Counted from the first letter of the stretch, positions 49,079 through 64,000 are shown. The stretch is 64,000 bases of DNA from Candidatus Bipolaricaulota bacterium (GCA_030606565.1 JAUWGE010000001.1:87740-151739), one strand, 5' to 3'. Numbers and translations: made by a program. Notes: generated by a model from the sequence alone, not told the origin.

Positions 49079-51151
49079 ATGGCGAAAAAGTCCGCAAAGA
49101 GGAAGAAGACACCGCAGAACTGGCGTTCTAAGATCCTGTTTGAACGCGTGATGGTCTACTTGATCGCCCTGTTCGTCTTCGTCTTGCCGCTTTTTATCTG
49201 GCCAGGGAGCACGGAGTACGGCTACGATAAGTCGATTTTCGCTCTCATCGGGATCTCGATCCTTCTTATTCTCTGGGGAGGCTCCACCTGGCTAAAAGGG
49301 GAGTGGCGAATCCGCCTTCCCTGGATAACCTTCCCCGCCCTCGGATTGATCCTTGTCTCCCTCCTCTCGCTCACCCATGCTATAAACGGCCGCGTGGTGA
49401 TCCAAAGCCTCACGCTCCTCGCGTTCTTCTTCCTGTTTTACCTGGTAGTAACAAACCTCGTAAAGGAGAAGCGTGACGTTGCCCTGATCCTCTATTGCCT
49501 TCTTCTATCGTCATTTTTGGCCTCGCTCTACGGCCTTTTGCAGTACCTAGGAGTGATGCTCGGGGCAAGCGGTGGGCATGGTCTTGGAGAGATGATATCC
49601 ACGATGGGGAACCGCAACTATTTGGGTGGATTCACCGCCTACCTCCTTTTCCCCTCTGTCATCCTGATCGTTCGGCTCCGTTCTCGGCTCCTACGTGCCC
49701 TTGCTATCGGGCTTATTTCCTTCAACTTTGGGACGGCAATGCTCGTCAACCAAATGGGAGTGGTTGTCGCACTGATCGTCGCCGCGGTTGCGTTTCTCAT
49801 TGGGTGGGCCATCTTCCGGCCGATTGATCCGATCCGCCAAAACCGCGGATGGCTTATCGCTTTTCTTTTCCTTCTTCTTTTCACCTTTCTCGTCGAGGCC
49901 CCGTCCGGGCCTCTCAATTCGGTCGTCGGACTTTCAGCGGATGGGAGTTCTTGGATCGCCCAGTTCTGGGCGCGAAACTCAGGTAAGGTTCGTTCGTGGG
50001 ACTGGTGGGTCGGCTGGGAGATGTTCAAGGATCACCCCGTCGTTGGGGTGGGGCTCGGTAACTACAAGCTTAACTTCATTCCGTACAAGGCGAAGTTCCT
50101 CGCGTCCCCTCAGGGGGCAGGCTACAACTTCCACATCGCCCGCGCGGCACAGGCGCATAACGAGTATGTGCAGGTGACGGCGGAGCTCGGCTCACTCGGG
50201 ATCCTCGCTCTCCTCGCCCTGCTGATCACAGCTCCCATCTGTTTTTGGATTAGGCTCCACCGTAACTTAAATGAAGGAGACCGCTTCGATCTGCTCCTTT
50301 TTTCCTGTGGAGTCGTTGCGTTCCTGGTGCACGCCCTGGTCAGCTTCCCCGCTCACCTTCCTGCCTCCTGCCTCGTTCTTGTCCTTGTGCTTGGCCTCGC
50401 CTCCTCGCGCACCTACGGCGAGGCAGCCGAGGTGCGCGTCAGCCTCAAGAAATGGCCGCTCAAAGTCTTCGTCACAGTGCTCATCGCTTTTTGCCTGCTT
50501 GTCTCCGTAATCGCTGCCCGCGACTTCTCCGCTGACCTTCTCCTTGGCCAGGGAATCAGGCAGCTTCAGATGGGACAGTTCCGGCTCGCCGAAGCGACCC
50601 TCGAACGAAGCGCCCGTCTCGACTTCTGTCCCCGCCAAGTCTACTATCACCTTGCCACGGCGAAGATTAAACAGGGCCGCTACGAAGAGGCAAGGGTTGA
50701 TCTGGAGCTGTGCCGCACCCGCTTCGTCGTGGAAAACCTCTATCTCAATCTGGCAAGCCTAGCCGCGAACCTGGGGGACTTGAAGACGGCACGGCAGGAC
50801 TTAGAGCTGCTACTGGCTACCCATCCCCATCCCACCCTTCAAATCCAGGCTGAGTACCTGGATAAGTACCTGGAAGCGATAATCACCATCCAAGAAGGGG
50901 ACTACAACCGCGCCACGGACATACTGGAAACGCTTATCCAGAAACACCCAACCTTCGAGCGGTCCTACATCGCCCTTGGCGATCTGTACCGGATGAGGGG
51001 AATGCCAGTCAACGCGCGCAAGAACTATGAAAAGGCCCTTGAATTGATCGATGAGAAGCTCACTAAGGCGAAACTGCGCAGTGAGATCGAGGTTCTCATA
51101 AAGGAGAAGGAGGCCGTGGAGGCCAGTCTCACCAAATTGCCTTCCTCTTGA
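49079..51151 (+). CDS. O-antigen ligase/Wzy_C family membrane protein with C-terminal TPRs
   Basis: STMGNRN, GVGLGNY, AHNEYVQ..AELG; TPR-like tail. Confidence 0.82.
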   Translation: MAKKSAKRKKTPQNWRSKILFERVMVYLIALFVFVLPLFIWPGSTEYGYDKSIFALIGISILLILWGGSTWLKGEWRIRLPWITFPALGLILVSLLSLTHAINGRVVIQSLTLLAFFFLFYLVVTNLVKEKRDVALILYCLLLSSFLASLYGLLQYLGVMLGASGGHGLGEMISTMGNRNYLGGFTAYLLFPSVILIVRLRSRLLRALAIGLISFNFGTAMLVNQMGVVVALIVAAVAFLIGWAIFRPIDPIRQNRGWLIAFLFLLLFTFLVEAPSGPLNSVVGLSADGSSWIAQFWARNSGKVRSWDWWVGWEMFKDHPVVGVGLGNYKLNFIPYKAKFLASPQGAGYNFHIARAAQAHNEYVQVTAELGSLGILALLALLITAPICFWIRLHRNLNEGDRFDLLLFSCGVVAFLVHALVSFPAHLPASCLVLVLVLGLASSRTYGEAAEVRVSLKKWPLKVFVTVLIAFCLLVSVIAARDFSADLLLGQGIRQLQMGQFRLAEATLERSARLDFCPRQVYYHLATAKIKQGRYEEARVDLELCRTRFVVENLYLNLASLAANLGDLKTARQDLELLLATHPHPTLQIQAEYLDKYLEAIITIQEGDYNRATDILETLIQKHPTFERSYIALGDLYRMRGMPVNARKNYEKALELIDEKLTKAKLRSEIEVLIKEKEAVEASLTKLPSS

Positions 51152-51203
51152 ACCTTCCTTGAAAGCGCTTCCCGCCCCTCCTATACTGAAAGTGTGATTT
51201 CTT

Positions 51204-53771
51204 ATGGCAATTGAAGTCATCAAACGAAGCCTCGACTACCTCTTGGGGCAGACAAACACCCAGCAGCTTAAGCGCTTCCGTTCTCACCTGCGGGCGATAA
51301 ACACATTATCAAAAGAGATGGAACGCCTTTCCGACGTGGCGCTCCAAGCCAAAACAGAGGAATTTCGAAGACGTCTTGAGGCAGGAGAGACAAAGGACAA
51401 AATTCGAAATGAGGCGTTTGCTGTGGTGCGCGAGGTCGCTGTGCGCACTGTACAGATGCGACCATTCGACGTACAGATCATAGGGGCAATTGCCCTCGAT
51501 GAACAGAAGATCGCGGAGATGCAAACCGGGGAGGGGAAAACCCTTGTTGCCACCCTCCCCGCCTACCTGAACGCACTGGTGGGGAAGGTGCACGTGGTAA
51601 CCGTGAATGATTACCTCGCCCGCCGCGACCGGGAGTGGATGGGCCCGATCTACGAGTTCCTCGGCCTGTCTGTCGGCCTCCTTCAGGAGGGGATGGAGAC
51701 CGAGGAGAGAAAATCCGCCTACGCTGCCAATATCACCTATGGAACGAACAACCAGTTCGGGTTCGACTACCTGCGTGATAACATGGTTCTCTCCACCGAC
51801 CAAAAAGTCCAGGGACCTCTCGACTACGCGATAGTTGACGAGATCGATAACATCTTGATCGACGAGGCACGCACCCCGCTCATCATCTCCGGTTCCACCG
51901 CCCAGTCAATCGACCGCTACCGCAAGTTCGCGTCGCTTGTCCGCCGATTCAAGAAGGATGCAGATTTCGAGATCGACGAGGAGACACGCCGGCTCACCCT
52001 CACCGACACAGGGATCCACAAGGGCGAGGAGGCTCTGTCTCTTGAGAACCTATTCGCCCCGGAGAACACCGACACCCTCCACCACCTTGAGACGGCACTA
52101 CGCGCGCTGCACTTATTTAAGAAAGAGCATGACTACATCGTTAAGGACGGCCGGGTGATGATCGTTGACGAGTTCACCGGGCGGCTGATGCCCGATCGCC
52201 GCTACTCCGACGGCCTCCATCAGGCGCTTGAGGCGAAAGAGGGAATGATGGTACAGCGCGAGTCGCAGACCCTCGCCCAGATCACACTACAGCACTACTT
52301 CCAGCTCTATAAGAGAATCTGCGGGATGACCGGCACCGCAAAGACCGAGGAGGAGGAGTTCAAGCAAATCTACGCCTTGCCAGTACTCGCCATCCTCACC
52401 AACCGACCGCTCATCCGCGAGGCGAAACCCGACGTGATCTTCCGCACCCGCAAGGCGAAGTTCGAGGCGATGGCCGAGGAAGTGGAAAGACTTCACAAGA
52501 TAGGAAGACCGGTCCTGATCGGGACCAACTCGATCGAGAAATCAGAGCGGCTCGCAGCCTTGTTCAAGGAGCGCGACCTTCCGCACCATGTGTTAAACGC
52601 CAAGTACCACGAGCAGGAGGCGGAGATCATCAAGGAAGCCGGCAAGCCTGGGGCGATTACCGTCGCCACCAACATGGCCGGCCGTGGGACTGACATCAAG
52701 CTCGGCGATGGAGTCGCCGAACTCGGCGGCCTGCATGTCATGGGCGGTCAGCGCCACGAATCCCGCCGGATCGACAACCAGCTCCTCGGCCGCTCGGGGC
52801 GTCAAGGGGATCCCGGCTCCTCCCAGTTTTACCTCTCACTCGAAGACGACCTCTTGCGTATCTTCGGTGGAGACCGGATCGCCTCCGTAATGGATCGATT
52901 GGGAATGGAGGAGGGGCAGGCGATCGAACACGACCTCCTCACCGGTGCTATTCGTCGCGCACAGAAGCGTGTAGAAGGGCGCAACTTCGAGATCCGAAAG
53001 CGTCTCCTTGAATATGACCTCGTCCTTGCTAAGCAGCGCGAGGCGATCTACTCCCTGCGCGATCGGTTCCTCTTACCGCCACGCGATGAAGCGGATTCCC
53101 TTCCCATGGATGGCCTCGATGACTATCTAGGCGAGCTGCTCGAAGAGTACGCTGAGGGGCTTATCGCCGACTACGCCAATGCCTCCCGACCCAAGGAAGA
53201 ATGGAACTTAAAGGGGTTGACCCACGAACTCTCAGCTGCCATTCCCGTCTCGCCACAGACCCTGGAGGGGAAGGGACCTGATGAGCTCCACAGCGAAGTG
53301 GTCGATTGCCTCCATCGCGCCCTCTCCCGGCAGAAGGAGCAGCTCGGCGCGCGCTTCCCCCTAATCGCACGGTATCTCATTCTCACTACCGTCGATGAGG
53401 CCTGGCTTTCCCACCTCTACACCCTCGATGACCTGAAGGAGGGGATCGGATGGACCGCCTACGGGGGAACTGACCCGCTCGTCGCCTTCAAGCGTGAGTC
53501 GTTCGCGCTCTTTCAGGAAATGCTCGCCCGCGCGGCGCAAAAGATCGTCCGCTCTCTCATCAATCCACGTCTCGCTGCTCCGGGAGGGGCACGGCAGCCA
53601 ACCCCTACTCAAGAGGTGAGCTACGTCCACGCACCTGCGGGATCGGTGAGTACAACAGCGACAAAACCGAAGCGAAACCCTGTCGTGGCTGTTAAAAAGC
53701 CCGGCCGTAACGATCCCTGTCCCTGTGGATCGGGGAAGAAGTACAAAAAGTGCTGCGGCCGGAATGCTTAG
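51204..53771 (+). CDS. secA: Preprotein translocase ATPase SecA
   Basis: MQTGEGKT, DEID, TNMAGRGTDI, SEC-C motif CPCGSGKKYKKCC. Confidence 0.98.
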   Translation: MAIEVIKRSLDYLLGQTNTQQLKRFRSHLRAINTLSKEMERLSDVALQAKTEEFRRRLEAGETKDKIRNEAFAVVREVAVRTVQMRPFDVQIIGAIALDEQKIAEMQTGEGKTLVATLPAYLNALVGKVHVVTVNDYLARRDREWMGPIYEFLGLSVGLLQEGMETEERKSAYAANITYGTNNQFGFDYLRDNMVLSTDQKVQGPLDYAIVDEIDNILIDEARTPLIISGSTAQSIDRYRKFASLVRRFKKDADFEIDEETRRLTLTDTGIHKGEEALSLENLFAPENTDTLHHLETALRALHLFKKEHDYIVKDGRVMIVDEFTGRLMPDRRYSDGLHQALEAKEGMMVQRESQTLAQITLQHYFQLYKRICGMTGTAKTEEEEFKQIYALPVLAILTNRPLIREAKPDVIFRTRKAKFEAMAEEVERLHKIGRPVLIGTNSIEKSERLAALFKERDLPHHVLNAKYHEQEAEIIKEAGKPGAITVATNMAGRGTDIKLGDGVAELGGLHVMGGQRHESRRIDNQLLGRSGRQGDPGSSQFYLSLEDDLLRIFGGDRIASVMDRLGMEEGQAIEHDLLTGAIRRAQKRVEGRNFEIRKRLLEYDLVLAKQREAIYSLRDRFLLPPRDEADSLPMDGLDDYLGELLEEYAEGLIADYANASRPKEEWNLKGLTHELSAAIPVSPQTLEGKGPDELHSEVVDCLHRALSRQKEQLGARFPLIARYLILTTVDEAWLSHLYTLDDLKEGIGWTAYGGTDPLVAFKRESFALFQEMLARAAQKIVRSLINPRLAAPGGARQPTPTQEVSYVHAPAGSVSTTATKPKRNPVVAVKKPGRNDPCPCGSGKKYKKCCGRNA

Positions 53772-53983
53772 GAGATCCGTTCCAACAGGAGCTCGTCGTC
53801 TGTGACGAAGAGCCTGATCAACTCGAAAACTTCCGTATCTTGCTTCTCCTGCCCTGACAGCTCGTAGGTGATCTCCCTCTTACGCATCATCACTAACCGG
53901 TTTCCCAGAGCGATCGCCTGCTCCATGTTGTAGGTAACCATGATCGTGGTGAGATTCCTTGGTTCCACAAACTCAAGCGTCAA
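53768..53983 (-). pseudogene. C-terminal remnant of an ABC ATPase (COG1101-like)
   Basis: LTTIMVTYNMEQAIALGNRLVMM (H-loop His replaced by Tyr); no Walker A or B. Confidence 0.6.
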
Positions 53984-54121
53984 GCGCCAGAGACGATTAA
54001 GGTTCCACTTTCCTTAAAGACCTTCGCCAGGGCGGGCGATCTGATCGAGGAGACAAACCCGCGTCTCTTGAGGGCCCACTTCAACACTCCCTCCTTTGTG
54101 CTGCTTCAGGTGACTTAGTCC

Positions 54122-54150
54122 TTGACAGCTTCAGACGATTCTGTTAGGAT
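54122..54150 (+). promoter_or_regulatory. Sigma70-type promoter of the leader-livGFHM operon
   Basis: TTGACA-N17-TAGGAT with TG extension. Confidence 0.75.
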
Positions 54151-54168
54151 GCGTCTATAGGAGGAAAG

Positions 54169-54249
54169 ATGCGACAGGCTTCTATCCTGGAGGTGCGAAC
54201 GGCTAGCGATACTTTTAATTGCTACTTTATGATTCATTGGGCTAACTAG
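54169..54249 (+). CDS. Putative attenuator leader peptide MRQASILEVRTASDTFNCYFMIHWAN
   Basis: AGGAGG RBS, ATG; stop codon inside an 11-bp hairpin; terminator follows. Confidence 0.7.
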   Translation: MRQASILEVRTASDTFNCYFMIHWAN

Positions 54250-54278
54250 TAGCGCCTGAGAGGCGCTACTAGACCCGC

Positions 54279-54313
54279 AAACCGAAAGCCGAAAGGCTTG
54301 CGGTTTTTTCTTT
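54279..54313 (+). terminator. Attenuator terminator upstream of livG
   Basis: aaaccg-a-aagcc GAAA ggctt-g-cggttt followed by a T tract. Confidence 0.75.
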
Positions 54314-54336
54314 GCCTGCAACGTGAGGAGGAAAGA

Positions 54337-55110
54337 GTGCTTGTTGTCGAAGACCTTGCCAAGCAGTTTGGTGGGCTACACGCTGTGGACAGTTGTTCGT
54401 TCACGGTAAAGCGAGGTACGATCACCGGGCTGATCGGGCCGAATGGAGCAGGCAAGACTACAGTGTTCAATCTCCTCACCGGTTTTCTCAAACCCGATAG
54501 CGGCGAGGTTCACCGTGCGGAGGAGAACATCACAGGCCTACCACCCCATCGCGTCTTCCGCCAGGGAATTTGTAGAACCTTCCAGATTCCGCGTGAATTG
54601 AAGGAGATGACGGTTGTGGAAAACCTGATGCTCGTACCCTCCGGACAGCTCGGCGAAAGGATGTGGAACCCATTCTTTCGGCCACGGAGGGTGCGTCAGC
54701 AGGAGCGTACGATCTGTGATAAGGCGTTTGAAGTCCTGGACTTCTTGCAGCTTTCCCATCTAAAAGACGAGTATGCGGGGAGCCTCTCCGGCGGCCAGAA
54801 GAAGCTCCTGGAACTGGCTCGAACCATGATGGTCGACCCCAGAGTGGTCCTGCTCGATGAACCCGGTGCGGGAGTAAACCGCACCCTTTTAAAACGCCTA
54901 GCCAGTTCCATTGAACGGTTGTGCAGAGAGACGGGGACAACCTTCCTCATTGTCGAACACGATATGGACTTTATCATGAGACTCTGCACCCCGGTGATCG
55001 TGATGAGCGAAGGGCGCAAATTGATGGAGGGAACTCCCGCAGAGGTCCAGCAAGACCAACAGGTACTCGACGCCTACCTCGGGGGACAGTATGTCGCTAT
55101 TGACGGGTGA
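54337..55110 (+). CDS. livG: HAAT/branched-chain amino acid ABC ATP-binding protein
   Basis: GPNGAGKTT, RTFQ, LSGGQ, EHDM. Confidence 0.9.
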   Translation: MLVVEDLAKQFGGLHAVDSCSFTVKRGTITGLIGPNGAGKTTVFNLLTGFLKPDSGEVHRAEENITGLPPHRVFRQGICRTFQIPRELKEMTVVENLMLVPSGQLGERMWNPFFRPRRVRQQERTICDKAFEVLDFLQLSHLKDEYAGSLSGGQKKLLELARTMMVDPRVVLLDEPGAGVNRTLLKRLASSIERLCRETGTTFLIVEHDMDFIMRLCTPVIVMSEGRKLMEGTPAEVQQDQQVLDAYLGGQYVAIDG

Positions 55111-55795
55111 GGGGATCCATAGTGGTTACGGAGATATGGAGGTCCTTCACGACGTCTCCTTCCGCATAGAGGAGAAAGAGATCATCTCGATCATTGGTCC
55201 AAACGGGGCCGGAAAGTCGACCCTGTTGAAAACAATCTTCGGGTTGCTCAAACCCACAAAGGGAAGTGTCACCTTTAAGGAAAACAGTATCACTGGGCTG
55301 GCGCCTGATCGAATCGTCCGCTTGGGTATGGCCTATGTTCCCCAAGTGGAGAACGTCTTCCCCTCACTCACCGCCCAGGAGAATCTGGAGATGGGCGCCT
55401 TTATCCGCAAAGATGATTTCAGCGACCGATTGGAAGAGGTCTATGAACTCTTCCCCCTCCTCAAGGAGCGGCGGCGGCAGCGGGTAGGGAAGATGAGTGG
55501 GGGCGAACGGCAGATGGTAGCGATGGGCCGAGCACTGATGCTCGACCCGGAGTTGCTCATGTTAGACGAACCCTCCGCTGCTTTGGCGCCGAAGTTGGCG
55601 GAGATGATCTTTGAAAGAATCACCGCGATCAACGAGACCGGCGTTTCGATCCTCATTGTGGAACAGAACGCCAAGGAATCCTTGAAGCTGGCTGACCGGG
55701 GGTACGTTCTGGCCAGTGGACAGAACCGCTTCGAAGATACAGGTGAGAACCTGTTGGCCAACGAGGAGATCGGGCAGCTCTACCTGGGCGGGTAG
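55091..55795 (+). CDS. livF: HAAT ABC ATP-binding protein
   Basis: GPNGAGKST, MSGGERQM, VEQNA, YLGG. Confidence 0.9.
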   Translation: MSLLTGEGIHSGYGDMEVLHDVSFRIEEKEIISIIGPNGAGKSTLLKTIFGLLKPTKGSVTFKENSITGLAPDRIVRLGMAYVPQVENVFPSLTAQENLEMGAFIRKDDFSDRLEEVYELFPLLKERRRQRVGKMSGGERQMVAMGRALMLDPELLMLDEPSAALAPKLAEMIFERITAINETGVSILIVEQNAKESLKLADRGYVLASGQNRFEDTGENLLANEEIGQLYLGG

Positions 55796-55804
55796 AGGAA
55801 ACAA

Positions 55805-56728
55805 ATGCAGATACTATCAAGAATTCCACAGTTGCTTATATACGGTGTCATCTCAGGGAGTATCCTTTCCCTGGGAGGGATTGGCGTCTCCCTCACCTAC
55901 AGCATCCTGGGTTTCGCCAACTTCGCTCATGGTGATTTCATGGCCCTTGGCGCATACATCGCCCTTGGACTATTTACTCTAACCGCTGGACTGGGAATTC
56001 CCAGTACTCCTCTTGGTCCACTCTCCTTCGGATTCGGTTTCATCCTCTCCTTTATTCTAGCTATGGGGCTGACTGCCTTGACGGTAGTCCTGATCGACCG
56101 GTTCCTCTTTAAACGGTTGCGGCACACTAGCTCGATCATTCTGATGATGTCTTCAATTGGAGTCGCATTGGGCCTACGGAACGTCCTTCAATTCTTCTGG
56201 GGGCCGCAGCCGCACTACTACATAGAGAAGATACAACTGGCTATCGTGATCCCTGGGGTAGGCGTTAGGATCAAGCCCGACCAGGTGTTTATCATTATCG
56301 CCGCTATAGTATCGGTCGGATTGGTCCACTACTTTTTGCAACATACCAAGATGGGTAAGGCGATGCGTGCTACTGCGGATAATATGGCGCTTGCCCGAGT
56401 AACGGGTATCAATACGGAACGGGTGATCCTTTGGACATGGGTGATTGGCGCTGCCTTAGCAGCAACGGCAGGGATCCTCGCCGGGATTGAGAACAAGTTC
56501 ATCACCCCGGAGTTAGGGTGGCAGATGCTCCTGTCTATCTTTGCCTCCGTCGTCCTGGGTGGACTTGGCAACCCTTACGGGGCGATCCTTGGAGGGATGA
56601 TCATCGGCCTTTCCGAAGAGGTCTCAACCGCGTTCATATCCACCGGGTATAAACCGGCTGTGGCCTTCATCATCATGATCATCATGTTGCTGATCAAGCC
56701 AACCGGACTGCTAGGGAAGAGGCGATAA
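55805..56728 (+). CDS. livH: HAAT ABC permease
   Basis: NFAHG, GKAMRA, KPTGLLG. Confidence 0.9.
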   Translation: MQILSRIPQLLIYGVISGSILSLGGIGVSLTYSILGFANFAHGDFMALGAYIALGLFTLTAGLGIPSTPLGPLSFGFGFILSFILAMGLTALTVVLIDRFLFKRLRHTSSIILMMSSIGVALGLRNVLQFFWGPQPHYYIEKIQLAIVIPGVGVRIKPDQVFIIIAAIVSVGLVHYFLQHTKMGKAMRATADNMALARVTGINTERVILWTWVIGAALAATAGILAGIENKFITPELGWQMLLSIFASVVLGGLGNPYGAILGGMIIGLSEEVSTAFISTGYKPAVAFIIMIIMLLIKPTGLLGKRR

Positions 56729-57759
56729 TGGACACGATTGTCGGAATAATAAACTACATCGTCTTCTTCGCTATCACTGCTGGCACCTACGGAATCCTTT
56801 CCCTGGGCTTAAACATCCAGTGGGGGTATACCGGCCTATTCAACATCGGGATCGCTGGATTCTACGCGGTGGGCGCATATACAGCGGCCCTGGTCTCTGG
56901 CCCGCCGCCTGGCGCATGGGATGGTCGCATCTTCGGGGGGTTTGAGCTCCCCTTCCTCGTTGGGCTGCTGGCGGCGGCCGTCGTCTGTGGGATCGTCGCC
57001 CTATTAGTCGGCATTCCCACTCTGCGCCTCAGAGCGGATTACCTCGCGATCGCCACCATCGGGATAGCTGAGACGATCCGACTGGTGCTAAAGAACGAGT
57101 CCTGGCTCACCAATGGTGTGTGGGGCCTGCAGCAGATCCCTTCCCCATTGTATGATCCAATCCGCGCAGGGGTCACGAGATTCCTGGGTGGGCACCCTGA
57201 CCTGCCGCCATGGTTACACGATCTGATCTTTAAGTCGTATAACTGGTTTTATCTCCTTTTAGTTCTGGGCATCCTCTTTATCCTCTATCTCATCATGCAG
57301 CGTCTCGTGCGCTCCCCCTGGGGACGCGCGGTAAAGGCCATCCGCGAAGATGAGGATGCCGCTGCGATGTCAGGTAAGAACACCTTCTCCTTCAAGATAC
57401 AGGCCCTCGTGCTAGGCGCGATGATCATGGGGATCGGCGGGAGCCTCTACGCCCACTACGCCAGGTTTATCTCTCCCGCCTCGTTCAAACCCCTCTACGG
57501 GACCTTTCTTGTCTGGGTGATGTTGGTCCTGGGAGGAAGCGGGAACAACAAAGGCGCCATCCTCGGTAGCTTTGTCGTATGGGGGATCTGGGCGGGGACC
57601 GACTTTTTGACCGGCTACTTCCCCTTTACCGCCACACAGGCAGCTTCTCTTCGAATTATCATTATTGCAGTATTGCTGGAAGTCATTCTACTATGGCGCC
57701 CGCAGGGGCTGTTACAGCGAGAAAAGCGCCCCCCAACGATCCTCAAGAAAAAGGCGTGA
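56728..57759 (+). CDS. livM: HAAT ABC permease
   Basis: GYTGLFN, LRADYLAIAT, AIREDE. Confidence 0.9.
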   Translation: MDTIVGIINYIVFFAITAGTYGILSLGLNIQWGYTGLFNIGIAGFYAVGAYTAALVSGPPPGAWDGRIFGGFELPFLVGLLAAAVVCGIVALLVGIPTLRLRADYLAIATIGIAETIRLVLKNESWLTNGVWGLQQIPSPLYDPIRAGVTRFLGGHPDLPPWLHDLIFKSYNWFYLLLVLGILFILYLIMQRLVRSPWGRAVKAIREDEDAAAMSGKNTFSFKIQALVLGAMIMGIGGSLYAHYARFISPASFKPLYGTFLVWVMLVLGGSGNNKGAILGSFVVWGIWAGTDFLTGYFPFTATQAASLRIIIIAVLLEVILLWRPQGLLQREKRPPTILKKKA

Positions 57760-57762
57760 AAA

Positions 57763-57793
57763 ACGGGGGGCGGCCCGATAAGGTCACCCCCCG
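57763..57793. terminator. Probable terminator hairpin between convergent livM and the binding-protein gene
   Basis: cggggggcggcc...ggtcacccccg. Confidence 0.55.
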
Positions 57794-57854
57794 GGAACAG
57801 GAGAGACGAAGGTATCTCCCTCCTGCAATCTGTCTTACCCTTGGTCTTCTCTAG

Positions 57855-59066
57855 TTATCCAGAAGTCTCCATGAGATCAATGACCTTACACCCTTCGATT
57901 TTCCAGATCAGGATTTTTCCCAGAACATCCCCGGTGTCTGTAAAATCTACTACTCCAGAGACGCCCTGGTAGTTGATCTCTTTTCCTTGTTTTAGGAGTG
58001 AAACCGCCTTGTCCCACTCACCGTAGAAGACCTCCACTCCGGGAGAATTGGCAACAGCACGCAGGTTGTCGCGAATCGCTGGACCTGTAGCCTCCCCTGC
58101 TCTGACCATGGCGAGAGCGATCAGCATGACCGCATCGTACGCCTGGAAGTTGTAAGGGACAGCGCTAGGACCAAACGCGGCGTTGAAATCAGCGGAGAAC
58201 TCATCCGCTCTAAACCCAGCGGCCGCTACTGTGCCGTATGCCCCCTCAATGGGGCCGGTGCCTTCCGCCTCGTTGCATCCCGGGCCGGATGCAACTGCTT
58301 CTCCCTTCATCCCGTCGGAGAAGAAGAAATCACCCTGGTAGCCGGCCTCAACCGCTTCCACAATCTGTTTGTTCCCATCCACCGGGTAACTGATCATGAC
58401 GATCGCATCGGGATCCCCGGCTATGAGCTTGTCCACCTCACCCCGGTAAGAGGGCTTGTTTTCCTCGTAGGGGACCATCGCCAATACCTGGCCACCGTAC
58501 TCCTCAAACGTGTCTTTAAGGGTGTCTGCTAGGCCTTTGCCATAATCGTTGTTCACGTATATGACGGAAATCGTCTTGTAGTTAAGAAGCAGGACCATCC
58601 GGGCCATAACCACGCCTTGTATGTCATCGGGGACAACCGTCCTGAATACGTAGTCGTTGTCGTCCAAGGCAGAGACCGAAGCGGCTGATGAGGCGGGTGA
58701 AATCAAGACCACCTCAGCGGGGATGGTCACGCTGGAACACGCTACGGTAACGCCACTGGAGAGGGCTCCCATGATTGCCGGGACCTTATCGAGTTCCACC
58801 AGTTTACTGGCGGCATCGCGCCCGACATCGGGGGAGGTCGCTGTATCCCGTACTACTAACCCCAGTTGCGTGCCTAATACTCCGCCCGCGGCGTTGATCT
58901 GATCAACGGCCAACTGAGCGCCGTCCACAATCGGAGGACCAAACGGGCCTAGACCTCCGGTCAGCGCCATCAGGGCACCGATCTTAATCGTCTCCGCCGC
59001 AGTGGCGGTGATCGCCAATCCCAAAACTAGCCCAACTACCAACAGACAAACTGAAACTCGTCGCAT
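57855..59066 (-). CDS. HAAT-family (LivK-like) substrate-binding protein
   Basis: Signal peptide, INAAGGVLG, GALSSG, NNDYG, AYDA. Confidence 0.9.
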   Translation of the reverse strand: MRRVSVCLLVVGLVLGLAITATAAETIKIGALMALTGGLGPFGPPIVDGAQLAVDQINAAGGVLGTQLGLVVRDTATSPDVGRDAASKLVELDKVPAIMGALSSGVTVACSSVTIPAEVVLISPASSAASVSALDDNDYVFRTVVPDDIQGVVMARMVLLLNYKTISVIYVNNDYGKGLADTLKDTFEEYGGQVLAMVPYEENKPSYRGEVDKLIAGDPDAIVMISYPVDGNKQIVEAVEAGYQGDFFFSDGMKGEAVASGPGCNEAEGTGPIEGAYGTVAAAGFRADEFSADFNAAFGPSAVPYNFQAYDAVMLIALAMVRAGEATGPAIRDNLRAVANSPGVEVFYGEWDKAVSLLKQGKEINYQGVSGVVDFTDTGDVLGKILIWKIEGCKVIDLMETSG

Positions 59067-59164
59067 GTTAACCTCCCTGAATATTTATGTGCCTACCTAT
59101 ACAGTCTCTAGCAGTCTCTTCGGAACGCTCACCTCCTTTCTCGACCTAGCGGATAAGGCCACCC

Positions 59165-59196
59165 AAAAATAAAGACCACAGGCATTGCCTGTAGTC
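59165..59196 (-). terminator. Attenuator terminator upstream of the LivK-like gene
   Basis: gactacaggc-aat-gcctgtggtc-tttattttt on the minus strand. Confidence 0.75.
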
Positions 59197-59230
59197 GTCT
59201 TCCTGCCTTATCTTGAGCTTTACCTATTGT

Positions 59231-59341
59231 TTAGGTTAGCTCAAACAAGGCAGGCATCCACAGAATAAAATAATGAACGACGTAAAGGGAACCGGTAACT
59301 ACGCCTTCAGTCTCTCTTCGATACCCTTTTGCCGTGTTCAT
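59231..59341 (-). CDS. Putative attenuator leader peptide MNTAKGYRRETEGVVTGSLYVVHYFILWMPALFELT
   Basis: ATG 10 nt after the -10 box; stop codon inside long hairpin 59202-59254; terminator follows. Confidence 0.65.
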   Translation of the reverse strand: MNTAKGYRRETEGVVTGSLYVVHYFILWMPALFELT

Positions 59342-59351
59342 AGTTATCCCC

Positions 59352-59380
59352 ACTATAGCATGTATCCGCCACGCTGTCAA
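59352..59380 (-). promoter_or_regulatory. Sigma70-type promoter
   Basis: TTGACA-N17-TATAGT with TG extension. Confidence 0.75.
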
Positions 59381-59413
59381 GAGCAACACCTGCGTCCGTC
59401 AAGAGATCGTTTA

Positions 59414-60061
59414 TTACAAGCCAGGAACGTGAGCTCTATTCTCCAAAGACCGCAGGAGGCGATTGGCGATCGTGACCAGACCCAAGTAGAGCAACCCAAC
59501 GACCAGGAACACCTCAAAGAAGCGGAACGTCTCGTAGGCGATCAACCGCCCCTGGCCTGTCAGGTCAACGAGGGTGACAAGGTAGGCGAGCGAGGAATAC
59601 TTAATGAGGTACACGATCTCGTTGGAGCAGGCGGGAAGAGCCTTTCGTAACATTTGGGGGAGGATGATCGACAGAACAGCCTGAAGCCTTCCCATGCCCA
59701 AGGCGCGTGCGGCTTCCAACTGCCCACTTTTTATGGAGAGGATCGCACCGCGAAAGTACTCGGAGTGGTAGGCCCCGCTGCATAGGCTGAACGCGACGAT
59801 GGCGGAGACAAACGGACTGAGCACAAGACCGAAGCGCGGAAGGCCGTAATAGATGATAAAAAGCTGCACCAACAGCGGTGTCCCCCGGAAGAGCGCCTGG
59901 TACACCCAAGCCAGAGACGACAGTAGAAGCCCGCCATAACTTCGCCCCAGCGCAACCGTGATCCCGATCGCAAGGCCAATGGGTACTGAACAGACGATGA
60001 GTTGGAGCGTGATGGACATCCCTTGAAATAGGCGAGGAAGCGCCCCTGCGAGGAAGCTCAT
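59414..60061 (-). CDS. Polar amino acid ABC permease
   Basis: FRGTPLLVQLF, GQLEAARALG. Confidence 0.92.
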   Translation of the reverse strand: MSFLAGALPRLFQGMSITLQLIVCSVPIGLAIGITVALGRSYGGLLLSSLAWVYQALFRGTPLLVQLFIIYYGLPRFGLVLSPFVSAIVAFSLCSGAYHSEYFRGAILSIKSGQLEAARALGMGRLQAVLSIILPQMLRKALPACSNEIVYLIKYSSLAYLVTLVDLTGQGRLIAYETFRFFEVFLVVGLLYLGLVTIANRLLRSLENRAHVPGL

Positions 60062-60753
60062 CGACTGCTCTCCTTCGCACGATCTCCAAGGCCGGGGATG
60101 CGAGTGCGTCGCTCCATTACCCAGAAGACTAAGACGCCAAGATAGGTAAGGACGAGGTAGATAGCGGCCACAGTCAGGTAGATCGTCATCGTGGCGTAAG
60201 TTCGCGCAACGATGAACTTGCCCCTGCTCAGTAGCTCAACAACGCCGACAGCAAATGCCAACGCAGTATCTTTGAGGACGATGGAATACTCATTGGCAAG
60301 CCCTGGAAGTGAGAAGTGAAGAGCCTGAGGGAGGAGCACCAACCAGATTGCTTGAGGTTTGCTCATTCCCAGGGACCGGGCTGCCGCCATTTGACCCTCT
60401 CCCACTGCTAACAGGCTGCCACGGTAGATCTGGGATTGATAAGCGGCGCTGCGCAGCCCCAGCGCCAAGACCACGGCGAGGAAGGGAGAGAGGGAGACCC
60501 CTTCGATGCTTCCCAACCCGAAATAGAACAAGAACAGAAGAACGAGGGCGGGAAACCCCCGGAATATCCTGTCATATATGGCAGCGACCCATTTGCACCA
60601 GCGTGTGCCATACACGTGGACGAGTGCTAAGGGAACCCCGAGAAGAAAGCCGACTCCCAGACAGGTGGCGATCAACGCCATCGTGATGTACGCACCCTGA
60701 AGGAGCGTGGGCAAGGAGCGCACGATCAAGTTCAAGCTGTCTGTGAAACTCAT
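60058..60753 (-). CDS. Polar amino acid ABC permease
   Basis: FRGFP, GQMAAARSLG, LKDTAL. Confidence 0.92.
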   Translation of the reverse strand: MSFTDSLNLIVRSLPTLLQGAYITMALIATCLGVGFLLGVPLALVHVYGTRWCKWVAAIYDRIFRGFPALVLLFLFYFGLGSIEGVSLSPFLAVVLALGLRSAAYQSQIYRGSLLAVGEGQMAAARSLGMSKPQAIWLVLLPQALHFSLPGLANEYSIVLKDTALAFAVGVVELLSRGKFIVARTYATMTIYLTVAAIYLVLTYLGVLVFWVMERRTRIPGLGDRAKESSR

Positions 60754-60805
60754 GCCTTGATGGAGGAAGAGAGGGGAGCTCTGCTCCCCTCTCTCCTTAT
60801 AGGGC

Positions 60806-61591
60806 TTAGTCTCCGATGAGCCACTTCTCTACAAGACGGTCCCATTCGTCGCTTGCCTTGATGCGTTTGAGACCCTCGTTTAACAGGGAAAGCAGCTCGT
60901 CATCGCCTTTACGGACCGCGTAACCGTAGATTTCACCGGTGTTGATCGTCCCCACGATCGTTGCATCCCGGCCAGCTATGGCGGAGCGTGCGGTCGGCTC
61001 GTCCATGACCGCGGCGTCGACACGGCCTATCAGGAGATCCTCTACCGCGAGCAGGAAGCTGTCGTAAAGCTTGAGCTTGACAGCAACGCCTTCGTCTACG
61101 AGGTTCTCCTCGATCCAGGTCTGTGAGGTCGTCCCCCGCTGCACGCCGATGGTCCTGCCAGCGGCGATGGCCGAGAAGATGTTGAACTGAGGAAAGGGCT
61201 CTCCCTCTTCATCTACCTCTTCCCGCACGATTACAGCAAGGTCGATCGACCAGTAGGGATCGGTGAAATCGACCTGTTCTAGACGCTTTTGGGTGATGGT
61301 CATCCCCGAGGCGATCATGTCGATATTCCCAATCTTCAAGGTGGGAATGATCGCGTCCCAATCGATAGGAACGATCTTTACCTCAAAGTCCATCTCACCC
61401 GCGATCCACTGGACCACCTCCACGTCGAAGCCAGCCGGGTCTCCATTCTCGTCGATGTAGGAGAAGGGCGGGAACGCAGCATCGATACCGTCGACATAGA
61501 GAGGTTTCTCGCCTGCCACAGAAAGAAGAGCGAAGCTCGTCAACAACAGACAAAGTGCAACAGCAAACCGCACAGAAACTCGTACAAACAT
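60806..61591 (-). CDS. Polar amino acid ABC substrate-binding protein (SBP family 3)
   Basis: FPPF, GFDVE, SGMTIT..R, GVQRGTT. Confidence 0.92.
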   Translation of the reverse strand: MFVRVSVRFAVALCLLLTSFALLSVAGEKPLYVDGIDAAFPPFSYIDENGDPAGFDVEVVQWIAGEMDFEVKIVPIDWDAIIPTLKIGNIDMIASGMTITQKRLEQVDFTDPYWSIDLAVIVREEVDEEGEPFPQFNIFSAIAAGRTIGVQRGTTSQTWIEENLVDEGVAVKLKLYDSFLLAVEDLLIGRVDAAVMDEPTARSAIAGRDATIVGTINTGEIYGYAVRKGDDELLSLLNEGLKRIKASDEWDRLVEKWLIGD

Positions 61592-61702
61592 GTTATCCTC
61601 CTAATTGAAAAGGCTTTTAACTAGGTTATTTTCTGCTAATTTGACACGGCAATGAATGCCCATCGGTTGGTAAAACACAACGAGCAAACAATAAGAGTGG
61701 TT

Positions 61703-61804
61703 TTAGAGTGAACGGTCCCAGGAGGGACCGTGATGCGCGTGGAGGTGAGCATGCAGCCGAATCGTGTTGACGCTAATTGGTCCAAGCCGATTAACGGTTT
61801 GCAC
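61703..61804 (-). CDS. Putative His-rich leader peptide MQTVNRLGPISVNTIRLHAHLHAHHGPSWDRSL
   Basis: GGAGGT RBS, GTG start, 5 His in 8 codons followed by a cggtccc-tcct-gggaccg hairpin. Confidence 0.7.
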   Translation of the reverse strand: MQTVNRLGPISVNTIRLHAHLHAHHGPSWDRSL

Positions 61805-61833
61805 GAAAACCACCTCCACTGTTGGATGAAACC

Positions 61834-61862
61834 ACCTTACCCGTTAGCTGCTTCATTGTCAA
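61834..61862 (-). promoter_or_regulatory. Sigma70-type promoter
   Basis: TTGACA-N17-TAAGGT. Confidence 0.6.
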
Positions 61863-61894
61863 GTCTTAGATGAGGCAACAGAGGACCCCCTACA

Positions 61895-61950
61895 TTGACA
61901 ACAAAGGTCGGAGGGGCTATCATTTAGCAAACACCATTGGAGAGTGCTAA
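61895..61950 (+). promoter_or_regulatory. hrcA promoter and CIRCE operator
   Basis: TTGACA-N17-TATCAT, then TTAGCAAAC-N9-GAGTGCTAA (61924-61950). Confidence 0.9.
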
Positions 61951-61958
61951 GAGCCAGA

Positions 61959-63017
61959 ATGACCCTTCCAGAAAGACAAAGGCTTATCTTGAAAGAGATC
62001 GTCGACCGCTACATCCGGCGGCGCGAGCCCGTCTCCTCGAGGATGATCCTCGATGATTACGGGTTACTTGTCAGTTCCGCCACCGTACGCAACGACATGA
62101 ACGATTTGGAAGCAGCCGGATACATCGAGAAACCGTACGCCTCCTCCGGACGGATCCCGACCAAGAAGGGATATCGCTTCTTCGTCGACTGGCTCCTCGA
62201 CCTCTCCGAACTGACAAAGAAAGAACGCCTAGAAGTGGTAGAGGCTTACGGGGTGCGCTGCCTGGAAGTGGGAGAGGCGATGCGCCAGACAGCTTTCCTG
62301 TTGGGGAACATCACCGGCTACGCAGGGTTCGTCATTCCACCTCGCTTGGAGGAGACCCGCCTCGACCAAATAGTCCTGATAAGAATGGACCCACGGATGG
62401 TCCTTCTGGTAATCGTCTCTGATATCGGCGTCGTCGAACACAAACTGATCCCGCTCGAAAAGGATCTCTCCGCGGAAGAGATCAATCGGATGACACAGTT
62501 AATCAACGACACCCTGTGTGGGGTAAGCCTCGACGCGGTGCGAGAACTGACGCTTGAAGATGGACCGGAAGGATGGTATGAGCCACCTGTGCGCCAGGCG
62601 CTATCAGTCTTGCGCCACATCCTAGAGCGACGGACCCGTCAGTGCCTTTACTTCGAGGGAATTTTGAACCTCGCTGATAGCTTGCAGGAGGTGGCCCCTG
62701 CTCGTGCGATGGAGCGTTTCGCCAGCTTGATCCACGCTGTGCAAGACGAGCGCGCATTTACCGAGGCAATCCGAACAATCCGTGGGGACAGAGAAGGAGT
62801 AATGGCCGCAGTTAGCAGCTGTCCGCTCCCTGGCCTAGAGGAGTACAGCGTGGTAACCTCCGACTATCGTCCGCATTCCGGGGTACTCGGTGTGATCGCT
62901 CCCCTATGGATGGACTATGGCAAGGCGCTCTCGACGACAAGCTACATTGCAAACCGCTTGGAGGCACTCCTTGTTGGCTCCTGCAAGGCAGGCTTGAGGG
63001 GACAAGATGGTGGATAA
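61959..63017 (+). CDS. hrcA: Heat-inducible transcription repressor HrcA
   Basis: SSATVRNDM, SSGRIPT.KGYR; CIRCE upstream. Confidence 0.95.
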   Translation: MTLPERQRLILKEIVDRYIRRREPVSSRMILDDYGLLVSSATVRNDMNDLEAAGYIEKPYASSGRIPTKKGYRFFVDWLLDLSELTKKERLEVVEAYGVRCLEVGEAMRQTAFLLGNITGYAGFVIPPRLEETRLDQIVLIRMDPRMVLLVIVSDIGVVEHKLIPLEKDLSAEEINRMTQLINDTLCGVSLDAVRELTLEDGPEGWYEPPVRQALSVLRHILERRTRQCLYFEGILNLADSLQEVAPARAMERFASLIHAVQDERAFTEAIRTIRGDREGVMAAVSSCPLPGLEEYSVVTSDYRPHSGVLGVIAPLWMDYGKALSTTSYIANRLEALLVGSCKAGLRGQDGG

Positions 63018-63035
63018 AAAAAGGAAACAAGGGAT

Positions 63036-63578
63036 ATGACAGAAGAAATGAAAGAGAAAATACAAGGGGTTGAAGCCGAGGAACAAGAGCTCCCCACTAA
63101 AGACGGCCTTTTGGTCGAGAAGGAAGCGGAGATCCGTTCCTACGTCGATCGACTCAAGCGACTGCAGGCAGAGTTCGAGAACTACAAGAAGCGGGGGCTG
63201 CGCGAGATGGCCAATCTGGAAGAGCGGATTTCTGATCGAGAGATCCTCGATTTCCTCCCCCTGTACGACAACTTGCAGCGCGCATTCACGAGCTTCTCAG
63301 GGAACAACGACGCTCAGTCGTTCATCGAAGGGATAGAGCAGATCTTCGCCCAGTTCGATGAGATCCTTAAGCAAAAGGGGGTCTCTCCCATCGAGGCGGT
63401 TGGAAATCTCTTCGATCCAGCCAAGCATGAGGCCTTGCTAAGTGTTGAAAGCGACAAAGAGCGAAACGAAATCCTCGAGGAGTTCGAGCGAGGATACATA
63501 TGCAATGGACGCGTCCTGCGGCCAAGCAAGGTCAAAGTGAGTAAAGGGAAGACTGAAACGGAGGAGGAAAAGACATGA
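63036..63578 (+). CDS. grpE: Nucleotide exchange factor GrpE
   Basis: [28 protein letters not shown]. Confidence 0.95.
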
Positions 63579-64000
63579 GAGAGAAGCTCATCGGAATCGA
63601 TTTAGGAACGACGAATTCCTGTATCGCCGTCCTGGAGGGCGGAGCACCGGAGGTGATCACAAACACGGAAGGAGAGAGGGTAACCGCCTCGGTGGTTGCC
63701 TTCACCGACACAGGGGAAAGGTTGGTCGGCCGACTAGCAAAGCGCCAAGCGATCACAAACCCGAAACACACGGTCGCCTCGATCAAGCGAGAAATGGGAA
63801 CCGACCACCGGGTGAAGATCGAACTTGACGGGAAAGTCGAAGAATACACCCCGGAGCAGATCTCGGCGATGATCATACAGAAGCTGAAGAAGGATGCCGA
63901 GGAGCACCTGGGAGGCAAGGTTAAAAAGGCAGTGATCACTGTTCCCGCTTACTTCAATGACTCGCAGCGCCAAGCGACCAAGGACGCAGGGAAGATCGCC
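63575..64000 (+). CDS. dnaK: Chaperone DnaK, 5' part, runs off window
   Basis: Manual translation [16 protein letters not shown]...[24 protein letters not shown]. Confidence 0.96.

Follow-up and report, generated by a model that had tools for sequence, protein, structure and literature searches.

A putative ribosome-mediated attenuator with a mixed hydrophobic/aromatic leader peptide ahead of an amino-acid importer gene in Candidatus Bipolaricaulota

A stretch of 64,000 nucleotides (nt) from a Candidatus Bipolaricaulota bacterium (GCA_030606565.1, JAUWGE010000001.1:87740-151739; hereafter the window) carries, ahead of a gene for a LIV-type periplasmic binding protein, a short leader that is best read, with a probability of roughly three in four, as a ribosome-mediated transcription attenuator of an importer, relieved by shortage of hydrophobic and aromatic amino acids. 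An attenuator had been proposed at this place in an earlier note drawn from the sequence alone, and the interpretation is supported by comparison, as the codon runs of sister leaders fit the genes downstream of them; its multi-amino-acid aspect is supported because 29 of 29 orthologous loci keep a mixed hydrophobic/aromatic stretch in the upstream open reading frame (uORF). The leader belongs to a predicted family of leader-peptide attenuators that is absent from Rfam and from the literature searched. All coordinates refer to the window; the gene and its leader lie on the minus strand, so the element is read in reverse complement, with the following parts:

59352..59380, minus strand: sigma-70-type promoter, with -35 TTGACA, a 17-nt spacer and an extended -10 TGcTATAGT (11 of 12 matches)
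59231..59341, minus strand: leader uORF of 36 codons plus TAA, with the peptide MNTAKGYRRETEGVVTGSLYVVHYFILWMPALFELT, inside an open reading frame (ORF) at 59231..59389
59272..59341, minus strand: weakly predicted 5' hairpin, H1, which spans the ATG
59255..59287, minus strand: hydrophobic/aromatic codons 19-29, translated as L Y V V H Y F I L W M
59202..59254, minus strand: long hairpin of 53 nt predicted by folding, H2, with the stop codon TAA in its apical part
59197..59201, minus strand: 5-nt spacer AAGAC (termed purine) between H2 and the terminator, read from the sequence
59165..59196, minus strand: intrinsic terminator, T, with a 10-pair stem (GACTACAGGC/GCCTGTGGTC), the loop AAT and the U-tract TTTATTTTT
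59129..59140, minus strand: Shine-Dalgarno-like box GAAAGGAGGTGA without a start codon, 63 nt upstream of the real start
57855..59066, minus strand: LIV-type (HAAT family) periplasmic binding-protein gene, with its own ribosome-binding site (RBS) GGGAGG at 59077-59072

The anatomy described in the earlier note was recovered at every point: a strong promoter (59380-59352) stands ahead of a uORF of 36 codons (59341-59231) whose distal part reads LYVVHYFILWM, the stop codon (TAA, 59233-59231) falls inside the long hairpin, and an intrinsic terminator (hairpin GACTACAGGCAATGCCTGTGGTC, 59196-59174, followed by the U-tract TTTATTTTT) precedes the transporter gene, whose start codon lies 107 nt from T. 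The promoter was the sole promoter-like match in 58900-59600, where shuffles yield 0.5, and a comparable strong promoter type precedes the leaders of relatives. The uORF ATG (59341) lies 10 nt downstream of the -10 hexamer and has no Shine-Dalgarno (SD) sequence; this spacing had been raised as a caveat, and it is no obstacle, because it recurs across the leaders, the start codon falling 6-11 nt after the -10 hexamer in most of those with a called promoter. A near-leaderless start is thus a systematic predicted property of these leaders.

A strict scan of both strands of the window's assembly (1.81 Mb, 91.4% complete), in which the uORF was ATG-started and of 12-50 codons, returned exactly three places with a promoter, an ATG-uORF and a terminator. 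Two of them lie in the window (the 59-kb leader and a second one), and the third, on another contig, is a Thr-run leader. The leader arrangement exceeds chance. Searches of Rfam gave only chance matches of 12-16 bits in 58900-59600 at E <= 10, and zero matches at gathering score in 50000-64000, so that neither the T-box nor the Rfam leader families, such as those for Thr, Trp, His, Leu and Phe, are represented; neither uORF peptide of the window matched any family in Pfam or NCBIfam.

A DNA search of 41 related genomes matched the terminator region in 16, at 83-100% identity and in several copies per genome. Identity was confined in most of them to 35-45 nt around the terminator, and the matched places repeat one layout of strong promoter, short ORF, long hairpin, near-identical terminator, and gene. 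A pattern scan with one genome per species (GACTACAGG-N2-8-CCTGTGGTC) returned 78 stretches; when a T-rich tail was demanded, 64 hits were left among all loci, tail-less hits in unrelated organisms being dropped. Hits without a leader-like ORF in Bacteroidales (L044), Companilactobacillus (L052) and Roseivirgaceae (L097) were set aside, as were two cut near the terminator (L024, L063), and merging of identical sequences gave 52 distinct leaders with promoter, uORF, H2, and T. Their sources are labelled Candidatus Bipolaricaulota or Acetothermia, with some labelled 'uncultured Thermotogae', at least one of which matches a leader of a window-family genome. Of the phylum's 184 genomes, 50 contain a slightly relaxed motif (GACTRCAGG..CCTGYGGTC), among them 47 of the 73 that belong to the window's family, one of four in a sister family, and one of 19 in another family, and the reversed control pattern was found in none. 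The literature searched held no link of Bipolaricaulota or Acetothermia with attenuation, and the pairing of Bipolaricaulota with terminator gave only unrelated work.

When 48 downstream proteins of the family leaders were scanned against Pfam, the run in the final codons before H2 matched the class of the gene behind T:

Homoserine_dh behind T: TTTT or TTTTT run, 6 leaders
Cys_Met_Meta_PP behind T: MMM run, 2 leaders
Peripla_BP_6 paralogue behind T: MMM run, 5 leaders
CM_1 chorismate mutase behind T: F/Y/W clusters, e.g., FFWYYF and FYWYYYF, 9 leaders
ABC_sub_bind protein behind T: RWYWF (8) or CWYWF (1), 9 leaders
Peripla_BP_6 of the window's type behind T: mixed hydrophobic stretch, 11 leaders and the window

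The runs are dense, with Thr at 32 of 72 pre-H2 residues in the Thr class and Met at 18 of 48 in the Met binding-protein class. One Thr-run leader with the same terminator (L017; contig C27 of genome G000, ~104207-104450, MTKGHEHKAFRAFSAGLSFDFTVTTSASVSF) precedes a homoserine dehydrogenase gene and holds the sole other copy of T in the window's assembly. In one metagenome-assembled genome (MAG), a binding protein with a mixed leader occurs beside a 62%-identical paralogue with an MMM leader; clean runs are therefore available to the lineage when a single amino acid is meant. Six of the 48 downstream ORFs had no Pfam family, three of which read as wrong-frame or cut picks (L015, L062, L075) and three as proteins of unassigned function (L012+, L032, L037). 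The latter stand behind a WWW leader on the + strand (L012, ..LLWWWRDSG..) and behind two Thr-run leaders (L032 and L037, ..FQTTTTS and ..FFTTTS).

The agreement between run and gene also bears on the idea that a protein or RNA factor recognising the conserved T hairpin decides read-through, the uORF not being a sensor. Such a factor would suit the conservation of the T stem sequence across leader classes within the family, where H1 and H2 vary, and the failure to find an RNA antiterminator (described below). It is nevertheless most improbable, as a common factor leaves the fit between codon runs and downstream genes unexplained, other families of the class keep the layout with other terminators, and T changes compensatorily, like a plain helix (position 5 of the stem is A-T in 15, G-C in 8, G-T in 3, and A-C in 1).

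The attenuator reading was further compared with 30 loci chosen by binding-protein similarity alone (61-100% identity), one of which was cut. In all 29 that were left, a T-like terminator stands 80-107 nt ahead of the start codon, and an ATG-uORF that is at least 20 codons long stops 25-65 nt short of the terminator, an arrangement that appeared in 0.157 of cases in dinucleotide shuffles and in four of 29 reverse complements. Conservation of the uORF's composition upstream of orthologues, which had been suggested as a check, was found throughout: the pre-H2 stretch mixes hydrophobic and aromatic residues (L/I/V/F/Y/W/H/M) at 29 of 29 loci, as in LYVVHYFILWM, FFRFYWTI, LCLVWHVIYF, HLVYWITLF, LWFAYYIWL, FLVHFIIMLL, FLIHIIVIMLL, LHMLVMD, VVLVLSLVVIG, and LHWLFID. 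Across the eight pre-H2 codons of 14 distinct mixed leaders, these residues (I18 F17 L17 V12 Y11 W10 H7 M6) account for 98 of 112, and each eight-codon stretch averages 6.3 different residues. Orthologues in three other families of the same class (f6, f11, and f4) have other terminators, again with mixed pre-hairpin stretches (LHLTVYLFLMV, LHWTGYWFLMM, SIFYVLFLTW, LNYYLITWW, SLSILYLILIRFI), and in two further families of the class the binding-protein orthologues were without a leader. In another family of the class, binding-protein orthologues (L157-L163) have a different terminator, GCGGAGCU..AGCUCCGUUUUUU, whose 5' arm opens with seven bases (GCGGAGC) that recur, in several of these orthologues, in the 3' arm of H2.

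The other half of the transporter, encoded by livG-livF-livH-livM, is preceded by a leader of its own:

54122..54312, plus strand: second attenuator-like leader, with promoter, SD, and the uORF MRQASILEVRTASDTFNCYFMIHWAN (54169-54249)
54246-54272, plus strand: hairpin predicted by folding, which begins at the stop codon
54275-54303, plus strand: terminator and T-tract, different from T and 2 nt after the hairpin
54337-57759, plus strand: livG-livF-livH-livM, behind the second leader

This leader has an SD, unlike that of the binding-protein gene. Of 25 orthologous loci, 24 have such a uORF, most of them with the shared motif L-[FY]-x-[YF]-F-M-x-I-W, and an RNA-library contig from a ~92% relative carries two synonymous changes within this uORF. 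Both transporter halves are thus preceded by independent predicted leaders in which aromatic, Met, and Ile/Leu codons are mixed.

A search of the whole 91.4%-complete assembly for biosynthesis markers did not find CM_1, Chorismate_synt, Trp_syntA, KARI_C, or Meth_synt_2; His_biosynth scored 19.6 bits, under the cut-off, and Homoserine_dh matched twice. Although a marker missing from an incomplete assembly does not prove a missing gene, these results (five markers, four pathways) suggest auxotrophy, with a cell that imports aromatic, branched-chain, and probably histidine residues, and because the markers were not found in the assembly, the residues spelled in the transporter leaders are probably those that the cell has to import. 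The pathway that is present, that of threonine, bears a Thr-run leader.

The hairpin before the terminator has strong support from folding. The 70 nt upstream of T fold at -30.9 kcal/mol in the window (z = -6.5), and the orthologous leaders range from -21.5 to -37.2 kcal/mol (z < -2 in 29 of 29, mean -3.9) despite differing sequences; H1 is weak, the segment from the ATG to H2 giving z = -1.1 in the window and a mean z of -1.44 in 47 leaders, 14 of which fall below -2. The gap between H2 and T is 0-7 nt in all 47, and the two overlap in none of them. The stop codon lies at the apex of H2 in the window, but at its base in eight of 52 leaders. In the 28 Thr, Met, and Trp leaders, the run codons begin a median of 11 nt before the base of H2 (5-95%: 1-17 nt). 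A ribosome extends ~12-13 nt ahead of its A-site codon; one waiting at a hungry codon would therefore come to rest with its leading edge at the H2 base. By this measure the window offers six different residues to the sensing zone of single-amino-acid leaders, and only these: Y24 F25 I26 L27 W28 M29 (59272-59255) sit 18 to 3 nt 5' of the H2 base, and L19-H23 lie 21-33 nt away. The earlier note had envisaged a sampler with one or two codons for each of about eight amino acids. That idea is supported, since a mixed stretch is kept at 29 of 29 loci and recurs in the second leader, but by analogy with the single-amino-acid leaders only Y24-M29 would occupy the usual sensing zone.

Several observations weigh against attenuation by a broad codon sample. 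The leaders are related by descent, so counts of genomes overstate their independence. Three public runs labelled as RNA (contigs; one probably DNA) do not cover the leader and are thus uninformative on its expression; contigs of the binding-protein gene in one of the RNA runs (58311-58662, zero differences) may reflect DNA carry-over. Some orthologous leaders are almost purely L/V/I (e.g., VVLVLSLVVIG); sensing may thus not extend to every aromatic, His, and Met codon; and the hydrophobic stretch could be a segment of a membrane peptide. To these is added the poor yield of pairing partners for the 5' arm of T. Its duplexes gave a mean z of +0.3 with upstream sequence, z of ~0 with the 3' arm of H2, and a mean z of +0.69 with the 18 nt 5' of H2, where none of 47 leaders reached p <= 0.05; in folds of truncated transcripts the arm paired non-specifically in 52 of 52 leaders, and, with the ribosome at regulatory codons, pairing of the arm stabilised the fold by only 0 to -5.7 kcal/mol (35 leaders).

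The nearly pure L/V/I stretches, among them also FLLVICELC and LMLVICGLC, together with others that are mostly aromatic (FVFWYF, FFRFYWTI) and the mere six window codons within the zone of single-amino-acid leaders, would fit an attenuator that senses one class only, either branched-chain, as in ilv/leu leaders, or aromatic, with the other hydrophobic codons as drifting filler. We consider this unlikely, given that both independent transporter leaders hold aromatic, Met, and Ile/Leu codons side by side, in the second as a shared motif within a uORF kept at nearly all loci, and that sister leaders in the same genomes use clean runs for single amino acids, down to the MAG in which a mixed and an MMM leader precede paralogous binding proteins.

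In a further reading, the promoter, uORF, and terminator would form a separate small gene, for a hydrophobic small protein or a small RNA, with the binding-protein gene transcribed from its own promoter past T. The C-terminal half of the peptide (VVTGSLYVVHYFILWMPALFEL) is long enough for a membrane helix, T resembles an efficient terminator, and the 107 nt between T and the start codon would fit such a promoter. However, the 58900-59600 scan found no promoter-like site between T and the gene, and in sister leaders the RBS of the gene follows T by 7-40 nt, which leaves no space for one. Orthologous peptides vary in sequence and length, several ending after a hydrophobic stretch of 9-14 residues, the Thr and Met classes are not hydrophobic, and neither uORF peptide of the window falls into a Pfam or NCBIfam family; a separate gene is therefore given hardly any weight beside an attenuator sensing several amino acids.

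As to how termination would be relieved in such an attenuator, folding for alternative terminator and antiterminator structures did not return the consistent partner for T that the earlier note's proposal called for, within the limited power that the controls show, and alignments of the leader classes contained no conserved antiterminator partner. Of two Escherichia coli controls, thrL was detected (duplex -23.4 kcal/mol, z -7.0; stabilisation -9 to -12 kcal/mol) and trpL barely so (z -0.48; stabilisation -1.2 to -1.4 kcal/mol). In the window, AUUCUGUGG can pair with CUACAGG of T at -5.7 kcal/mol with the ribosome at codons 19-22. The modelling thus speaks against a thr-like antiterminator, and a weak trp-like one would be compatible with the data, because the same tests barely see trpL.

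Other lines of folding evidence were rejected. Full-length folding with a ribosome footprint left the terminator intact at every codon; on the controls the same constrained folding kept the trpL terminator in all states and disrupted that of thrL at one of 22 codons, and these folds carry no weight because the method fails on trpL. Pairing of the T 3' arm and U-tract with the purine-rich 5' arm of H1 (z < -2 in 23% of leaders) was discarded because the adjacent 5' arm would win kinetically. A GCCUKGU segment ~24 nt before H2 in four mixed leaders (L031, L093, L004, L006), which can pair with the 5' arm of T, was discarded because a ribosome stalled at the regulatory codons would cover it.

We infer that the uORF is translated, that the locus responds to starvation, and that a parked ribosome blocks termination. 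Transcription would begin a few bases before, or at, the AUG, and a ribosome would load on the nascent 5' end. With charged tRNAs plentiful, it would enter H2 as far as the stop codon at the apex, and T would halt RNA polymerase before the gene. With a poorly charged tRNA for a residue just 5' of H2 (most surely Tyr, Phe, Ile, Leu, Trp, or Met, with His and Val as further possibilities), it would park where its front edge meets the base of H2, T would fail, and the LIV-type binding protein would be made; the permease/ATPase operon of the same transporter would come under like control through the second leader. H2 would be closed while the ribosome is parked and unzipped when it reaches the stop codon, and a closed H2 must therefore accompany read-through in this scheme. 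The best guess is that the lower T stem is hindered from closing in the polymerase as long as H2, 0-7 nt away, is intact and has a ribosome at its foot, whereas a ribosome translating onward would unzip H2 and lengthen the tether, allowing T to act. A classical antiterminator helix appears not to be involved in this model. The T hairpin might then serve as a shared module to which Thr, Met, aromatic, and mixed sensors are attached and are still exchanged by recombination at the T boundary. That all of this holds together, i.e., antiterminator-free geometric attenuation, T as a shared output module with exchangeable codon sensors, and a mixed sensor reporting the amino acids that the cell does not synthesise, is a tentative proposal to which we assign well under even odds.

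A same-genus genome (G001; L002/L100) is 96% identical to the window from the terminator to the gene and has an unrelated leader (MIEAKRHVHSGLMNGFFRFYWTIAGFPALT) upstream of 59202; the polar amino-acid operon that separates hrcA from the leader in the window is missing there. In a metagenome DNA run, contigs of the window form and of the G001 form meet at 59173-59202 and diverge at 59202. Because the two leaders differ upstream of 59202 and contigs of both forms occur, sensors seem to be exchanged at the terminator boundary.

The product of the gene behind T matched Peripla_BP_6 (PF13458, E = 3.2e-50, 172.2 bits against a cut-off of 31.7), and the closest solved chains are branched-chain amino-acid binding proteins (4gnr, 3e-29; 3td9, 1.1e-22; also 4n0q, 1usg, and 1z15). 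Between T and this gene, a GGAGGTGR box lies 3' of the U-tract in 29 of 29 orthologous binding-protein leaders, 4-35 nt after it and 50-70 nt before the real RBS, and a box of this type was also found 3' of T ahead of ABC_sub_bind genes. The orphan box may be a stabiliser or a standby site; it resembles the STAB-SD stabiliser known from mRNAs of Bacillus. On the minus strand, upstream of the leader, a polar amino-acid ATP-binding cassette (ABC) operon ends at 59414, and livG-livF-livH-livM lies downstream on the plus strand in convergent orientation. The polar amino-acid binding-protein gene (60806-61591, minus strand), divergent from hrcA, has a promoter-like TTGACA..TAAGGT and a ~230-nt leader in 61592-61943, where Rfam gave no match and neither a uORF nor a terminator of the T-leader kind was obvious.

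Leader-peptide attenuation is known mainly from Proteobacteria, Actinobacteria, and a few other groups, and mainly from biosynthetic operons whose leaders carry runs of up to three amino acids. The kind of element described here is therefore known; what would be new is the lineage in which it occurs, its use ahead of transporter genes, how broad a set of residues the codons sample, and possibly the way in which termination is relieved. An uncultured candidate phylum would possess a whole regulon of such leaders, importers included, with leader ORFs that are systematically near-leaderless. If the sampler reading is true, one ORF of 36 codons integrates the charging of about six tRNA species into one transcriptional decision, possibly in a cell seemingly unable to make those amino acids, and if the geometry of adjacent hairpins replaces an antiterminator, attenuation would gain a new physical principle, and synthetic sensors a compact design. 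Ligands of binding-protein paralogues that could not otherwise be annotated are also predicted by the leaders, namely Met for MMM, aromatic residues for RWYWF, and a broad hydrophobic range for mixed stretches.

The closest known counterpart of the mixed stretch is the leader of the E. coli ilvGMEDA operon (ilvL), where Leu, Val, and Ile exert multivalent attenuation. As in ilvL, a stretch mixes codons of several amino acids, and shortage of any one would lift termination; unlike in ilvL, the mix in the window takes in branched-chain and aromatic residues as well as Met and His, most of them with one or two codons, and it precedes an importer gene instead of a biosynthetic operon; moreover, the uORF is near-leaderless, and an antiterminator helix was not found. 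The short uORF, the regulatory codons, and the intrinsic terminator before the first gene recall thrL and trpL, as do the Thr runs before homoserine dehydrogenase in the sister leaders. However, thrL has a strong helix that captures the 5' arm of the terminator, and no such helix was found in the leaders of the window's family; moreover, the family's regulatory codons lie outside the preceding hairpin, at a median of 11 nt from its base, and that hairpin ends 0-7 nt from the terminator.

Three further systems can be compared. In Deinococcus deserti, leaderless leader peptides were predicted, with 14 candidates for tRNA synthetase and biosynthesis genes, and the likeness lies in transcripts that start on the first codon, or 1 nt upstream of it, of a short leader ORF rich in the relevant residue and located ahead of amino-acid genes (PMC4007540). 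In mycobacteria, ribosome occupancy of leaderless polycysteine short ORFs reports tRNA charging; there, however, the output is translational, the SD of the next gene being masked and read-through constant (bioRxiv 10.1101/834739), whereas in the window an intrinsic terminator separates the uORF from the gene. The ilvBNC leader of Corynebacterium glutamicum combines three successive hairpins with a leader uORF for branched-chain amino acids; its terminator and antiterminator hairpins overlap (PMC11857589), whereas H2 and T lie side by side without overlap in the 47 leaders compared here.

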